Shown here: in pieces, positions 59,475 to 64,000 of the stretch
Numbering within the stretch: the stretch's first letter is position 1
Layout of the letters: each line of letters begins with the position of its first letter
Assembly (NCBI GenBank): GCA_041320515.1
Contig: JBGLNR010000001.1
Location: 1,510,201-1,574,200, forward strand
Direction: 5' to 3'
Length of the DNA stretch: 64,000 bases
Origin: Planctomycetota bacterium
GTDB lineage: Bacteria > Planctomycetota > PUPC01 > DSUN01
Program-made: the position numbers and the translations under genes
Notes under the pieces: generated by a model
Databases searched by the model: none
Seen by the model: only the letters and a program-made list of their open reading frames with translations
What the model was told of the DNA's origin: nothing

Positions 59475-59776
59475 AATGGCACGCCACGATTCCCGGTCGT
59501 TGCAGCCACAAGCGTCCCGCTTGTGGACTGCGCCCCCTACAGGTCGTATGCCCGAAACGGCCGCACACAATCCCTGCCAGCGTCCCCAGTGTCCCCAGCG
59601 TCCCACTTTCCGAGGGGCGGGGGCCAGGTGTTAACTTTCCATGGCGCAGGGTCGGACCGTAAGGGCGTGTTGCCCAAATCGAGAGCGCGGTTCGGAGTGC
59701 AGCCTTCAGGCCGTATCATGCGCGTCGGGAGCGGCAGATTACGGGCTAGAGCCCGCACTCCGAACTCGCCTGCCCT

Positions 59777-59883
59777 TTCCACCCCCGCTGCCGCCACGCC
59801 ATGCCCATCTGCCGCGAGGTCTACCCGCCCGAAACGCGCCTCGGCTCCGGCCGCAGCGTCCGCTGCCACCTCTATGGGCAGCA
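59777..59883 (+). repeat. Direct repeat copy 1: remnant 3' end of an Opp/Dpp-type ABC ATPase gene
   Basis: Translates to FHPRCRHAMPICREVYPPETRLGSGRSVRCHLYGQ, the oligopeptide ABC C-terminal motif. A stop lies just upstream. About 8 mismatches to copy 2 (by eye). Confidence 0.8.
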
Positions 59884-59970: not shown

Positions 59971-60198
59971 ATGCGGACCACATTGGACGTTGAAGAGGAT
60001 GTTCTGCTGGCGGCCAAGGAGATCGCCCGGAGTCGAAGAACTTCGGTCGGCAAGGTGTTGTCCGACCTGGTGCGGCAGGCGATGACGCGGCAGCCGGCCT
60101 CGGCTACTCGGGGGGATGTGCCGCTGTTCCCCGTGCAGCCCGACGCGGGGGTCGTGACGCTCGGACTGGTGAACCAACTGCGGGACGAGACGCCATGA
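59971..60198 (+). CDS. vapB: VapB-type antitoxin
   Basis: MRTTLDVEEDVLLAAKEIARSRRTSVGKVLSDLVRQ is present, with an AGGAGG RBS. The stop overlaps the vapC start (ATGA). Confidence 0.85.
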   Translation: MRTTLDVEEDVLLAAKEIARSRRTSVGKVLSDLVRQAMTRQPASATRGDVPLFPVQPDAGVVTLGLVNQLRDETP

Positions 60199-60626
60199 CC
60201 GCGTATCTTCTTGATGTGAACGTACTTCTGGCGCTGAGCGACCCGATGCACGTCCATCACGAGGCGGCCCACCAGTGGTTCGCGGATAAGGGCAGCCAGG
60301 CCTGGGCCACCTGCCCGATCACCGAGAACGGCTTCGTCCGCATCGCCAGCCATCCCAAGTACGCCAACCGGCCGGGGGACGTGCCCGTGGTCCTGGCGAT
60401 TCTGCGCCGATTCTGCGAGGCCGCGGGGCACCAGTTCTGGACGGAAGACATCAGCCTCCGCGATTTTCTGCGCCCGGATGTCGTGCTCACCCACGCCCAG
60501 ATCACCGACGCCTATCTACTCGCCCTGGCGGTGCAAAAGGGTGGGAAGCTCGCCTCCCTCGACCAGCGTATCCCTGCCGCCGCAGTACCCGGCGGAGCCG
60601 ACGCGCTGGAGCTGATCGCGCCGTAG
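60195..60626 (+). CDS. vapC: VapC PIN-domain toxin
   Basis: YLLDVNVLLAL, TENGFVRI, ITDAYLLALA and LASLD carry the PIN acidic residues. Confidence 0.9.
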   Translation: MTAYLLDVNVLLALSDPMHVHHEAAHQWFADKGSQAWATCPITENGFVRIASHPKYANRPGDVPVVLAILRRFCEAAGHQFWTEDISLRDFLRPDVVLTHAQITDAYLLALAVQKGGKLASLDQRIPAAAVPGGADALELIAP

Positions 60627-60653
60627 CCGAGTGCCCCTCCCCCTGGCTGCCAC

Positions 60654-60760
60654 TTCCACCCCCGCTGCCGCCACGCCCTGCCCATCTGCCGCGAGGTCTA
60701 CCCGCCGGAAACGCGCCTCGACGCCGGCCGCACCGTCCGCTGCCACCTCTACGGCCAGCA
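60654..60760 (+). repeat. Direct repeat copy 2: Opp/Dpp-type ABC ATPase 3'-end remnant
   Basis: It follows the vapC stop in frame and reads PSAPPPGCHFHPRCRHALPICREVYPPETRLDAGRTVRCHLYGQ. Confidence 0.8.
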
Positions 60761-60859
60761 GCGTCCGCTATGGCTGCTGACCCGACATTTGCCCATTGTT
60801 GCCACCCACTTGTGCGGACGCCAAGGACGACCCTTACGGGTCTGAGGCACCGTGGCGAG

Positions 60860-62557
60860 CTAACGAACCGAGAAATCCGGTCTCTTTGCGTTCACCCAAC
60901 CGAAGACTTCGGCATAGTCCCACGCGGGTCCACCGCACCCACCGGCACCAAAACCGCCCACAATCTCTCGCGAGGTCTCGGCCCGGGATCGGTTGGACCC
61001 ACGCACGGCGTCTGCGAAACTCGTTCGGCTCTCCTGTGACCGGTGCATGGCCATGGCCTGGCACTTGGCGAACATCGCATGCTTGTCGAGGGGGACTAGG
61101 ACGTTGATTTCGCTTGCATCTACATGCCCCCAGGGGCTCTCATACGTCCATACTTGGGATTCGCGATATGTTGTCTTGATCAGTTTCAAGGTGGCCCGCG
61201 TAATCCGACTGTGCGTTGGGTGGCTATCAGAAAGGAGCGGGATGAGGAAGACGCAGCCAGCCCCGTCGGGAGACTCAGACAAAAGGGCCGTCAGGTGACT
61301 GTTCAGCGCGGGTTCCTCCATTTCGAGTGTGTTTGCCCCAAGCCAACGCATATCCGAGACACCGAGTAGGCTCGCCTCCGAAAGCGCCTCGTTCTGCCGA
61401 ATGTCATCAGCTCGCGCGTCGTGCACGCTCTTCACGTCAACGGGCGAGCTCAGGCCGCCAGAGAGGCCTCGCCGCGCTTGGTAGTACCTTTGTATGTACT
61501 GGACCTCAACACCCTTCGGGCTCGGTGTTACAATCAGCGTGTAAACGCTTGGCTGCGGCTTCTGCCTCTGTTGCCACAGCGGGCCATTGCGCAAATAATA
61601 CAACAGACCACCACATCCCAGAACGACATCATCGCTGTGAGGGGAGATCACGACTACAGTCTTGCGCGTAAAGAACTTGAAGAACTCATCGCCGAGAGGA
61701 ACACCCATGTCGATAGTACGCCTCGTCGCCTTCCCAGAATCGCACGCCGCCCCCAAGTTGATGATCAGCCGCTCAGTCACATTTCTCAGTGGCTGTGACG
61801 GGGGCGGTGGGATGATGAACTGGTCCGCTATCGCAATATCGCTCTGTGTCACGGTCGCACCGCTCGGTGTAGCTCCCACGATTATGAAGACACTGTTAAG
61901 TAAGTGCGGGGGCAAGTGGTAGTTCGACAGAACAAGGTCAGCTATGTCCTTGGCCACTGCTGGCTGGGTCACGGCTAGTGCAGCCGCCAGTGTTCCCGTA
62001 CTATGCAGCCCGGCCAGCAGCAACACCTTGGTCTTGGATGAGCCCGAGGAGTCGTCGTAGGGATTATCAGTTAGCAGCACAACACCGTAGTCCTGGGTCA
62101 CGTTCCCTGACTCGTCATGCGCTGCCCGCCAAGTTCTCCCGTGAATGGAGAGCGAACGGTAGCCGGGGTCATCCAGGTCCAGCCTCATAGCACTTGCTAC
62201 TCGCCTATTCGTCTTCTGAATCTTCTCGATCACCTGCTTGGTCAGGCCATTTGTCTTGGGACCACCTATGAGGACCAGATGCGAGCTGGCTCGGGCACTT
62301 TCCCAAAGCGCGTCGTTGGCAGTTCCTTCAAAATGGAGCCTAGGCTGCGAGCTGTCCATCGCTAGCTGGCCTAGAGCATGGGTAAGTGCGATGAGCGCGC
62401 TGAAATCATTCGGGAGCCCGTTGTGAGAGCCAAGAGCCCCGACTTGACTGCCGCTCGCGCTGTTGCTCTCAGGGCATCGCATCAGGAACAAGGTGCGATC
62501 TAGCTGGTTGGCGAACGGCCATAGCATTGCGAGGTCAGAGAAACTAGTTGTAGACAT
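60860..62557 (-). CDS. Two-domain protein: unknown about 290-aa N-terminal alpha/beta-like domain fused to a PIG-L/LmbE-family deacetylase
   Basis: The C-terminal half has VVVISPHSDDVVLGCGG and SDSHPTH, which are PIG-L motifs. The N-terminal half (HLVLIGGPKTNG...DYGVVLLTDNP...KVLLLAGLHSTGTLAAALAV) is unrecognised. The gene is visibly less GC-rich than its surroundings. Confidence 0.75.
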   Translation of the reverse strand: MSTTSFSDLAMLWPFANQLDRTLFLMRCPESNSASGSQVGALGSHNGLPNDFSALIALTHALGQLAMDSSQPRLHFEGTANDALWESARASSHLVLIGGPKTNGLTKQVIEKIQKTNRRVASAMRLDLDDPGYRSLSIHGRTWRAAHDESGNVTQDYGVVLLTDNPYDDSSGSSKTKVLLLAGLHSTGTLAAALAVTQPAVAKDIADLVLSNYHLPPHLLNSVFIIVGATPSGATVTQSDIAIADQFIIPPPPSQPLRNVTERLIINLGAACDSGKATRRTIDMGVPLGDEFFKFFTRKTVVVISPHSDDVVLGCGGLLYYLRNGPLWQQRQKPQPSVYTLIVTPSPKGVEVQYIQRYYQARRGLSGGLSSPVDVKSVHDARADDIRQNEALSEASLLGVSDMRWLGANTLEMEEPALNSHLTALLSESPDGAGCVFLIPLLSDSHPTHSRITRATLKLIKTTYRESQVWTYESPWGHVDASEINVLVPLDKHAMFAKCQAMAMHRSQESRTSFADAVRGSNRSRAETSREIVGGFGAGGCGGPAWDYAEVFGWVNAKRPDFSVR

Positions 62558-63002
62558 CCACTACGCCCCTACTGATAATACAGGAGTCAATGCCATATTC
62601 AGGTGAGACTGTGCGGCTCCCGCGTACCTCTCATTCCCTCCCTTTTCCTCAGTTTCCCCGGCCTCCTGGGCTTCGCCGCAGGCCACGGTGCCTGACACCG
62701 ATAGGTCCATTCTGGATCGAGCGTTAAGTGCAAGAGGGGGCCAATATGGGTCAGATGTCGGGCCGAGGGCATCTATGGGCTTGCGGCAGTAGGGGGGAGC
62801 AGGGATTCGGAAGAAGGAAGTGCTGGCGGATGGTCGCATCGTGACATGCCCCCTGGCCGCTGTGCCGAGGTCGGCGCCCGATGGCGCGCAGGATAGCCTT
62901 TTCGGAGGGCGAAGTCAAGCGGATTTTCGGCAAGGATGATCTCACGCAGAGGCCACAGAGCACACAGAGAGGAGGAGACAGGAGGGCCTCACCACGGATT
63001 GC

Positions 63003-63335
63003 TCAGCGAACAGCCAGGGCGAGCGAGAGTCGAGCTTGGATCTCCTGCCAGTCGCGGCTGGTGAGGTGCCCGACGATGCGGGCCACCGTCGAGGGGTACG
63101 TGTTCAGGAAGGCTCGGAAGGCGGACGGCCTGGTCAGGCCTGCCTCTGCCCAGTCCTTCAGGGCATAGTCCGTCGGGCCGCTGGCCGCCTCGACCCGGCT
63201 GGTCAGCAGCCCAACGATGATATCGGGGCGATGTTGGTGATAGAGGGCGGACGAGACGACGATGGCCGGACGCCGCTTGGTCTCCCAGGCGCCGGCGAAC
63301 TCCACGACGGCAATGTCGCCGGGCCTAATGGTCAT
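63003..63335 (-). CDS. MazF/PemK-family toxin
   Basis: PGDIAVVEF...KRRPAIVVSS...IVGLLTS fits the PemK fold pattern. It overlaps the upstream small gene by 11 nt. Confidence 0.8.
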   Translation of the reverse strand: MTIRPGDIAVVEFAGAWETKRRPAIVVSSALYHQHRPDIIVGLLTSRVEAASGPTDYALKDWAEAGLTRPSAFRAFLNTYPSTVARIVGHLTSRDWQEIQARLSLALAVR

Positions 63336-63555
63336 TGGGGGCCTCCCACAGGACTGATTCCTCGGCGTACTGGCTGGATGACTTCAGGAAGTCGCGGATG
63401 TCCTCGTCGGTCCACTCATCACTCTCGTCGATCGTCTCCGGGTGCTGGGATCGCTCCTTGAGGAAGAGCGCGAAGTCCCTGACTTCGCGGACTCTCTCGG
63501 CAGGCAATCCCCGCAGCGCGCGGATGATCTGGGCGGCCTCGTCTCGCGTGAGCAT
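63325..63555 (-). CDS. Cognate antitoxin candidate (76 aa, acidic C-terminus)
   Basis: Start taken at MLTRDEAAQIIRAL... (ATG 63555). Its position and overlap with the MazF-like gene support the call. Family not recognised. Confidence 0.6.
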   Translation of the reverse strand: MLTRDEAAQIIRALRGLPAERVREVRDFALFLKERSQHPETIDESDEWTDEDIRDFLKSSSQYAEESVLWEAPNDH

Positions 63556-63678
63556 GTGTTCATGTCCCCCAAAGCGAATGTCCCGTAACCGCATTATGGC
63601 GCTGGGGGAATGGGATGTCAAGGAGCAAGCGGGCCGCTTGCTGCGCGGTTCGATGCGCTAGCCGCGTGCCGCTACGCA

Positions 63679-64000
63679 TTACTCCGCCTCCTCCCCGGCG
63701 GCGCGGAAGCCGATCTGGCCCCGCTTGGGGGCCGGTTCGGGAGGCGGGTCGAGAATGTCCATGAGGCGGTGGAGGACTTCCACGATGGCGGTTTCGTGGA
63801 GGTCGAGGCGGCTCCTGAGTTCCTTCTCCAACTGGGCGAGCTTGCGGGCCAGTTGGCGGCTATCGGAGAAGGCGGACCGCATCTTGACGAAGGCGCGGAC
63901 GACGTAGACGCTCATCTGCACGGCCCGCGGGCTGTTGAGGACGTTGGCCGCCATGATGGCGCCGTGTTCGGTGAAGGCGTGGGGCAGATAGCGGCGCCCG
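63679..64000 (-). CDS. ORF6N (KilA-N-related) domain protein; the 5' part lies outside the window
   Basis: ..RRYLPHAFTEHGAIMAANVLNSPRAVQMSVYVVRAFVKMR is the ORF6N signature. The reading frame is open to the window edge. Confidence 0.8.
   Translation of the reverse strand, partial: GRRYLPHAFTEHGAIMAANVLNSPRAVQMSVYVVRAFVKMRSAFSDSRQLARKLAQLEKELRSRLDLHETAIVEVLHRLMDILDPPPEPAPKRGQIGFRAAGEEAE

Follow-up and report, generated by a model that had tools for sequence, protein, structure and literature searches.

A rare planctomycete protein, probably of a conflict system, that joins an unannotated alpha/beta domain to a PIG-L deacetylase

The stretch analysed here (the window) comprises 64,000 nucleotides of the genome of a Planctomycetota bacterium (assembly GCA_041320515.1, contig JBGLNR010000001.1, positions 1,510,201 to 1,574,200 of the forward strand) and carries, near its right end, a gene for a protein of two domains. 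The N-terminal domain, here called X, was shown to belong, with its conserved positions intact, to a large and unannotated superfamily of alpha/beta domains; it is a mobile module most often joined to a TIR-like enzyme. At the C-terminus is a PIG-L/LmbE deacetylase, and proteins with this arrangement are here called the X-PIG-L family. Because the gene sits between toxin-antitoxin (TA) pairs and X is elsewhere mostly attached to TIR-type immune enzymes, its product probably belongs to a conflict system, as a rare protein whose enzymatic output is unusual. The parts of the gene and of the segment in which it lies are as follows (pLDDT, predicted local distance difference test; GC, guanine-plus-cytosine fraction; Dac, diacetylchitobiose deacetylase).

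60860–62557, reverse strand: complete gene for the 565-residue two-domain protein (X, linker, PIG-L/LmbE deacetylase), stop codon included (list of open reading frames and translation)
61823–62557, reverse strand: X domain, residues about 1–245, alpha/beta, with glycine-rich strand-to-helix loops IGGPKTN and AGLHSTGT, plus ND51 and D156-Y-G (AlphaFold2 model; profile search)
61691–61822, reverse strand: inter-domain linker, residues about 246–289, predicted to be disordered and shorter than in most relatives (pLDDT; alignment)
60863–61690, reverse strand: PIG-L/LmbE (CE14-type) metal-dependent deacetylase domain, residues 290–565 (Pfam PF02585; Foldseek)
61628–61645, reverse strand: catalytic motif 1, SPHSDD, residues 305–310, with predicted metal ligands H307 and D310 and predicted general base D309 (family-invariant; aligns to EPHPDD of Dac)
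61211–61222, reverse strand: catalytic motif HPTH, residues 446–449, with H449 the predicted third metal ligand (H446 and H449 invariant; aligns to HPDH of Dac)
60761–62950, no strand: low-GC segment (about 0.57–0.61) of the gene and its 445-bp upstream intergenic region, presumed to be an acquired piece (composition profiles)

Results

The reading frame and its product

The frame runs for 565 codons from an ATG without a stop or frameshift, and a full-length alignment to 21 relatives contains 78 invariant columns, all of which are kept in the window protein. The genome's own gene call is shorter (499 residues, starting at M67). Since invariant residues of the family begin at M1, F6, S7 and D8, within a segment (residues 1–17, MSxxxFSDLAxLWPFAN) that is invariant across the X-PIG-L family, the start at 62557 is correct and not M67. 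The AlphaFold2 model of the full-length protein has a predicted template-modelling score (pTM) of 0.81, with pLDDT below 50 over residues 250–287, and the corresponding alignment columns (300–450) are variable or gapped. Every string quoted in the first-pass annotation, which had been made from the letters of the DNA without database searches, is present in the translation: LVLIGGPKTNG (residues 94–104), DYGVVLL (156–162), LLLAGLHSTGTLAAA (179–193), SPHSDDVVLGCGG (305–317) and HPTH (446–449).

X, a module usually joined to TIR-like enzymes

A hidden Markov model of X was searched against 1.84 billion cluster representatives (clusters at 50% identity; E ≤ 1e-3) and matched 915 clusters. Twelve of these, at E ≤ 1e-30, are the X-PIG-L family itself including fragments, and the others are mostly proteins of 380–420 residues with X at the C-terminus. 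Among 119 X proteins, the partner domains were Nuc_deoxyrib_tr (n = 44), the CAP12/Pycsar TIR model CAP12-PCTIR_TIR (n = 35) and TIR_2 (n = 11), with a helix-turn-helix (HTH) or ribbon-helix-helix (RHH) domain in a few; PADLOC models of TIR effectors matched 63 of the 119, through the TIR halves only, and about 10 matched the candidate system PDC-S35. The order partner-X predominates (n = 68), X stands alone or with short extensions in 44, and the order X-partner, as in the window protein, occurs in only six. Ten positions are conserved superfamily-wide (D51, G98, N103, D156, G158, P166, G183, G188, T189 and A192), and the window protein keeps all of them.

An AlphaFold2 model of X (residues 1–262, 10-sequence alignment; pTM 0.81, pLDDT 76) is an alpha/beta domain with a beta-hairpin insert, in which G98, N103, G183, G188 and T189 are located in two strand-to-helix loops. 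In Rossmann-like folds, residues so placed typically bind phosphate or other anions. To the extent that the model can be relied on, the loops and the invariant Asp and Asn residues suggest that the ligand of X may be small and anionic, perhaps derived from a nucleotide; X may instead drive oligomerisation.

In curated libraries (Pfam, NCBIfam and PADLOC), residues 1–290 found nothing but a sub-threshold match to S_layer_C (PF05124; 17.8 bits vs a gathering score of 23.9, E = 0.0027), in keeping with the earlier statement that this half could not be assigned. S_layer_C is matched by 13 of the 119 superfamily members at E ≤ 0.01 (best, 5.6e-7), and the relation between the two, as read from profile scores, is one of distant homology and not of membership. 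The best matches of the X model in a Foldseek search of the PDB were the flavodoxin-like/carbohydrate-binding-domain (CBD) module of BcsB (E = 3e-4; template-modelling score [TM] 0.40–0.47), the S-layer anchoring domain of Methanococcus voltae (9FSA, E = 7e-3), GH115/GH67 accessory domains, and MoeA/gephyrin; the X profile had no match among PDB sequences even at E ≤ 10, and the model had no structural match in BFVD.

The first-pass annotation had seen a faint resemblance of this half to SLOG/LOG-like sensor domains, and that identity is rejected here. No SLOG-family Pfam model matched the window protein at E ≤ 10 or any of the 119 superfamily members at E ≤ 0.01, no LOG, ThsA or DprA structure stood among the top 50 Foldseek matches listed for the X model, and hhalign of the X profile against an LSDAT_prok SLOG protein returned a probability of 0.5% (a comparison of limited power, the template being a single sequence). 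The glycine-loop pattern is alike in kind only.

All TIR-X relatives are annotated as hypothetical, with E-values against the X profile down to 1e-25. A same-genus genome (G001) encodes three paralogous TIR-like-X genes (L009:329-1486, L034:1441-2610 on the reverse strand and L035:946-2223), each standing alone among sugar-metabolism genes; the product of the first aligns to the window X by BLASTP at 1e-10, with 26% identity over residues 24–205. This genome lacks X-PIG-L, and the window genome lacks TIR-X or any other copy of X. Four TIR-X neighbourhoods were fetched:

L036: nucleotide-signalling island with a STAND NTPase-WD40, two NUDIX genes, RelA_SpoT-LSDAT-RyR and an 899-residue RyR/P-loop protein
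L037: TIR-rich island with ThsB-TIR/TPR, three more TIR proteins, TrkA-RyR and a 905-residue RyR/P-loop protein
L038: TIR-X adjoining TA-type genes, for a HicB-like antitoxin and for a nucleotidyltransferase
L039: TIR-X adjoining BrnT/BrnA (TA genes)

The RyR/P-loop proteins of the first two islands (L036:10740-13439 and L037:9251-11968; ~900 residues) are encoded beside or close to the TIR-like-X genes and combine a P-loop ATPase in the centre (GxPGxGKSF) with an RyR domain at the C-terminus. They are full-length homologues (31% identity, E = 3e-119) on unrelated contigs and have no PADLOC match, and TIR-X with an RyR-ATPase may be a recurrent undescribed pair inside TIR/NUDIX/STAND islands.

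The deacetylase half

The earlier assignment of the C-terminal half to the PIG-L deacetylases held on three counts, namely profile, motifs and fold, which place it in the PIG-L/LmbE superfamily (PF02585, CAZy CE14). The Pfam PIG-L model matches residues 302–458 above its gathering score (E = 7.6e-8; 33.3 bits vs 28.2; 31.9 bits in the whole-genome scan), H-x-D-D and H-x-x-H motifs are both present, and the predicted fold is the Rossmann-like one of LmbE. A Foldseek search with the full-length model matched 34 PDB chains at E ≤ 1e-3, all of the PIG-L family (the top 23 by E-value being PIG-L family deacetylases), led by diacetylchitobiose deacetylases of Pyrococcus (E about 1e-9) and followed by TT1542, BC1534, BshB, Dbv21 and MshB, with TM of 0.6–0.72 on the target. 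Aligned by profile to the Pyrococcus Dac, SPH307-S-D309-D310 falls on EPHPDD, I-R387-x-N-E390 on IRRKE and H446-P-T-H449 on HPDH, and H307, D309, D310, R387, E390, H446 and H449 are invariant in all 22 X-PIG-L family members. The roles of these residues (zinc ligands, general base and substrate-binding Arg) are presumed to be those established for MshB, BshB and Dac. With family-invariant catalytic residues that align to a solved enzyme, the domain is regarded as catalytically competent.

This is the sole PIG-L gene detected by profile scan in the 5.97-Mb genome. A role as bacillithiol or mycothiol deacetylase is rejected: scores lie far below the equivalog cut-offs (BshB2, 24.7 vs 195 bits; BshB1, 13.1 vs 182 bits), and the genome has neither BshC nor a true MshC, its only MshC-like match being below the cut-off, as in 13 of 14 control genomes (one control was above). 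The best NCBIfam match of the deacetylase half is NF002557, the NagB-LmbE fusion (residues 437–516; E = 1.1e-11, 43.6 bits vs a cut-off of 384).

A foreign gene from a rare family

The gene has a GC of 0.578 and a GC at third codon positions (GC3) of 0.663, compared to GC3 values of 0.91–0.95 for resident upstream genes, and is among the three lowest-GC of 624 sliding 1.7-kb windows across the 64 kb (z = -2.9), which agrees with the first-pass remark that it is richer in AT than its surroundings. No full-length homologue was present in any of 40 relatives of the window genome, two of the same genus included. Because of this foreign composition and the absence from all 40 relatives, a recent horizontal acquisition of the gene in this planctomycete is well supported, in line with the horizontal origin first proposed. 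The 445-bp upstream spacer holds a sigma-70-like site at 62918–62890 on the reverse strand, by match to the consensus only, and a 92-codon open reading frame (62561–62839, reverse strand) that has neither a Pfam match nor a homologue at any related locus and is probably not a gene.

The gene had been called an orphan, a description that does not stand: a search of 5.8 billion proteins recovered 21 full-length relatives (570–690 residues, ~34–38% identity, 98–100% coverage), and there are about 20–30 such relatives in all. The family is nonetheless rare. Scans seeded on exact peptide patterns, the counts of which are thus lower bounds, found it in 4 of about 185,000 species genomes, all Planctomycetota, and at about eight loci among 241 million metagenome records.

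The tree contains a well-supported clade of 14 proteins (of 22), here the Dus clade, whose genes have host-like GC and conserved synteny, with Dus upstream of the gene and/or Usp and a Na/Ala symporter downstream of it. These copies look like a long-resident chromosomal gene of Thermoguttaceae-like Planctomycetota. About 5.5 kb upstream of the Dus-adjacent X-PIG-L, two contigs (L001:3091-4518 and L002:284-1711) encode an ApeA_NTD1-HEPN_Apea protein, accompanied by an HTH gene; it is the only defence-type gene seen near any Dus-clade member. The other relatives come from hosts of 39–61% GC and include a second clade, to which the loci L017, L020 and L045 listed below belong. No branch in the family comes near that of the window protein in length (2.68 vs a median of 0.2), and the tree does not settle where this very divergent copy falls relative to the two clades.

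Neighbourhoods outside the Dus clade

Each of the seven X-PIG-L loci that fall outside the Dus clade lies no more than about 6 kb from defence or mobile genes:

Window locus: VapBC, a MazF pair and ORF6N
L020: Gabija GajA (PADLOC 1e-95) and an HTH protein
L047: Shedu SduA
L044: TdeIII-type (type II) restriction enzyme
L017: WYL regulator and a Rad52/RuvC/PD-(D/E)XK prophage-like block, with a sugar-binding regulator beside the X-PIG-L gene
L045: nagB, then an integrase fragment and an insertion-sequence (IS)-type gene
L016: BrnT/CopG and a NAGPA gene

Together with the predominance of TIR-like partners in the X superfamily, these surroundings bear out the suspicion of a conflict-system link voiced in the first-pass annotation. 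Two outcomes had been named that would have spoken against the first reading, and neither was seen: the homologues do not lie in biosynthetic operons, and X matched no known housekeeping family. The genome has no bacillithiol or mycothiol pathway. A caveat to the conflict-system link is that the long-resident copies beside Dus/Usp do not have the look of a defence island around them. Comparison of recurring small reading frames and large neighbours across the X-PIG-L loci found no conserved partner gene.

Several neighbours were noted in their own right. The gene after X-PIG-L in L045 (1568-2356, beyond a 400-bp gap) encodes a NagB glucosamine-6-phosphate deaminase (Pfam 1.8e-23), the only aminosugar-catabolism neighbour among about 17 loci. 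A gene with a NAGPA domain (phosphodiester glycosidase; L016:170-3277) lies two genes upstream of X-PIG-L with a 986-residue unknown reading frame between them, and another, on an unrelated contig (L039:6864-7787), lies directly upstream of a TIR_2-X gene; the two NAGPA proteins have no mutual BLAST match, and coincidence is possible. A Cys-rich reading frame of 68 or 76 residues (C-x-C ... KGC-x-WC; L017:12408-12614 and L020:3281-3511, 41% identical) is directly beside X-PIG-L in both loci, downstream in one and upstream in the other, with no counterpart in the window or other loci.

The window locus

Pfam matches confirmed the flanks as first described, with VapBC on one side and a MazF-type pair plus ORF6N on the other:

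59971–60626, forward strand: VapBC-type TA module, an RHH-like (VapB-like) reading frame and a PIN protein (PIN E = 2.7e-7; weak RHH/DUF6364)
63003–63621, reverse strand: MazF/PemK toxin (the gene itself, 63003–63335) with an overlapping upstream 98-residue partner (PemK_toxin E = 4.6e-10)
63679–64000, reverse strand: 3' part of an ORF6N gene that continues to 64236 outside the window (Pfam on the extended locus L021; full-length 63679–64236, E = 1.2e-28)

After ORF6N, resident genes resume at once (~64.5 kb) with an SBP_bac_8 solute-binding protein, a GHL6 glycosidase and a GFO/IDH oxidoreductase, and the accessory islet spans only ~4.7 kb. An island bounded by a tRNA or integrase is rejected, as there is no tRNA in 40–64 kb of the window, no integrase in the annotation of the extended locus and an immediate return of resident genes. 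The gene was also considered for a small TA partner, and none was found: the VapBC and MazF pairs on either side each have both of their own members, and no small reading frame is conserved beside the gene across loci.

Two direct repeats of 114 nt (59770–59883 and 60647–60760, 92% identical) bracket VapBC and are the sole copies in the genome. Each codes for CxFHPRCRHAxPICREVYPPETRL...VRCHLYGQ, a Cys-rich sequence of the kind that typically ends Opp/Dpp-type ABC ATPases, and the remainder of such a gene is not present; apparently VapBC either inserted into the 3' end of a transporter gene since lost or duplicated that end. An origin of the repeats as integron cassettes or dispersed repeats is rejected, with only two genomic copies, both coding for the C-terminus of an Opp-type ABC ATPase.

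Discussion

The reading to which we give most weight, at somewhat less than an even chance, is that of a conflict module made up of one gene, with X for sensing or assembly and the fused deacetylase as the output. The product would be a cytoplasmic two-domain protein, acquired horizontally and lodged in a small accretion spot for TA genes. In this rare family a sugar N-deacetylase would have taken the place of the usual TIR output. Once activated, the enzyme might remove the N-acetyl group from a cytoplasmic metabolite that contains N-acetylglucosamine (GlcNAc), with UDP-GlcNAc or another envelope precursor as the most economical guess; in a conflict with phages or other mobile elements, growth would then be arrested or a glycoconjugate altered. 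With no conserved partner gene found, the window copy presumably works as a single gene. A bolder form of the same idea, in which X is an unrecognised immune domain for ligand sensing or activation by assembly that gates TIR-type NADases in hundreds of lineages, and X-PIG-L the first sugar N-deacetylase immune or abortive effector, acting on a GlcNAc-bearing envelope precursor, is one we consider unlikely.

Several observations weigh against a conflict role. The best fold matches of X are oligomeric, carbohydrate-associated structures, BcsB and the S-layer anchoring domain, and not known nucleotide sensors; the count of defence contexts is small and has no formal background rate; and nagB in L045, along with the nearby NAGPA genes in L016 and L039, hints at aminosugar metabolism. 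The largest clade (14 of 22) is inherited vertically, with host-like GC and Dus/Usp synteny in ordinary surroundings, and a vertical, syntenic pattern is unusual for defence genes. The long branch of the window protein could reflect relaxed constraint. PADLOC-DB v2, which covers known and candidate defence proteins, returned no family for the window protein at E ≤ 1. A scan of IMG/VR viral contigs found no X-PIG-L family member; with the absence of a BFVD structural match for X, this also led us to reject a phage origin. Finally, we know of no PIG-L enzyme that acts as a toxin or immune effector, and the literature searched contained none.

The main alternative is that the protein is an ordinary N-deacetylase of aminosugars or glycoconjugates (of chitobiose, GlcNAc or GlcNAc-phosphate type), with X as its substrate-binding or oligomerisation domain, akin to alpha/beta modules of carbohydrate-associated proteins, and that the gene arrived among TA genes by chance. 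This is a serious possibility, though one we would sooner expect to be wrong. The nearest solved structures are chitin-catabolic diacetylchitobiose deacetylases, the best NCBIfam match is the LmbE part of the NagB-LmbE fusion family, nagB lies downstream in L045, a NAGPA gene upstream in L016 and a sugar-binding regulator beside the gene in L017, and the window region is otherwise rich in sugar-metabolism genes; the likeness of X to the BcsB flavodoxin-like/CBD module and the S-layer anchoring domain, and the stable, host-like chromosomal copies of the Dus clade, point the same way. However, no operon partner is conserved across loci, and the adjacency of nagB was seen once, across a 400-bp gap, and is followed by integrase and IS genes. 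The partners of X in its relatives are mostly TIR-like or HTH domains and not carbohydrate enzymes, and the window protein lacks a signal peptide, whereas BcsB and the S-layer domains are extracytoplasmic. The rarity of the family and its absence from close relatives would be odd for a catabolic function, and the seven loci that fall outside the Dus clade all have accessory or defence surroundings.

Two further explanations are improbable. The protein might be a signal-processing or counter-defence enzyme, in which X would bind a small signalling molecule of TIR/RyR-type systems and PIG-L would hydrolyse an amide in it, making it an off-switch, by analogy to ring nucleases fused to CARF, and not a killer. 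X is indeed common to TIR-like proteins in nucleotide-signalling islands, HTH-X fusions fit a ligand-binding domain, and the PIG-L family includes amidases that act in non-sugar amide contexts, such as Mca. This account is entirely inferential, however; the window genome has no TIR-X or other copy of X to make the signal, and we know of no such signal that is acetylated or bears an amide. It is just as doubtful that the gene is a decaying passenger, a foreign gene under relaxed selection that is no longer useful in its host. The longest terminal branch of the family and the shortened linker would fit this, as would a region with truncated genes and duplicated gene ends, but the 565-codon frame is intact, all 78 invariant positions, all catalytic residues and all conserved X positions are retained, and both domains are predicted with confidence by AlphaFold2.

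The stakes differ between these accounts. Should the conflict-module reading hold, naming and characterising X would annotate hundreds of probable immune proteins in phyla where defence is barely studied. The 915 clusters all carry the annotation hypothetical, and X regularly accompanies TIR-like enzymes in Planctomycetota, Phycisphaerae and Anaerolineae, sometimes in TIR/RyR/NUDIX/STAND islands. A PIG-L effector would extend the known effector chemistries, which target NAD+, nucleic acids and membranes, by N-deacetylation of a sugar metabolite. If the protein is instead an ordinary N-deacetylase, the result is more limited, namely a CE14 enzyme with a new domain for regulation or oligomerisation.

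Comparison with known systems

The curated libraries and a literature search returned no description of X, TIR-X or a PIG-L effector, though a 2015 paper on nucleotide-centric conflict systems that lay outside the search might name X. The sole exception found for PIG-L/LmbE in defence is an LmbE gene in the G2L reverse-transcriptase/queuosine cassette (PMC8632793).

The C-terminal 275 residues share their fold and their metal and catalytic motifs with the characterised PIG-L/LmbE enzymes (Dac, 3WE7, 4XM1 and 8BGO; TT1542; BshB; MshB). Those enzymes, however, are single-domain proteins of 220–300 residues in defined pathways (chitin catabolism, bacillithiol and mycothiol), and none has a 245-residue N-terminal domain. 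NF002557, annotated as a "glucosamine-6-phosphate deaminase-like protein", is likewise a PIG-L domain fused to a second domain, but there is no NagB in the window protein and the fused domain is unrelated. The only annotated sequence or fold relatives of X are S_layer_C with 9FSA and the BcsB module (9FMT, 7L2Z and 6YG8). These are extracytoplasmic and structural or oligomeric, with TM of only 0.30–0.47, whereas X is predicted to be cytoplasmic and is fused to enzymes or HTH domains.

The TIR-like-X proteins (about 380–420 residues; Planctomycetota, Phycisphaerae and Anaerolineae) have X and its conserved residues in common with the window protein and are likewise mostly standalone and patchy in distribution. 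In these proteins the effector comes first and X last, the opposite of the order in the window protein, and the partner is a TIR or nucleoside-deoxyribosyltransferase-like N-glycosidase and not a deacetylase. In architecture only, the protein resembles ThsA (SIR2-SLOG), PycTIR and the SAVED-nucleases Cap4/Cap5, which also combine a swappable enzyme with a non-catalytic alpha/beta domain in one polypeptide and occur in defence islands; X differs from these in being neither SLOG, SAVED nor cNMP-binding by sequence or fold, and in having no signal-producing partner gene. To our knowledge, a sugar deacetylase is not the output of any sensor-effector nucleotide-signalling defence system. Judged from domain content and sequence relationships, the protein is best classed as a sensor/adaptor-plus-enzyme fusion of conflict islands, with a putative new adaptor domain and an output enzyme that would be unprecedented.

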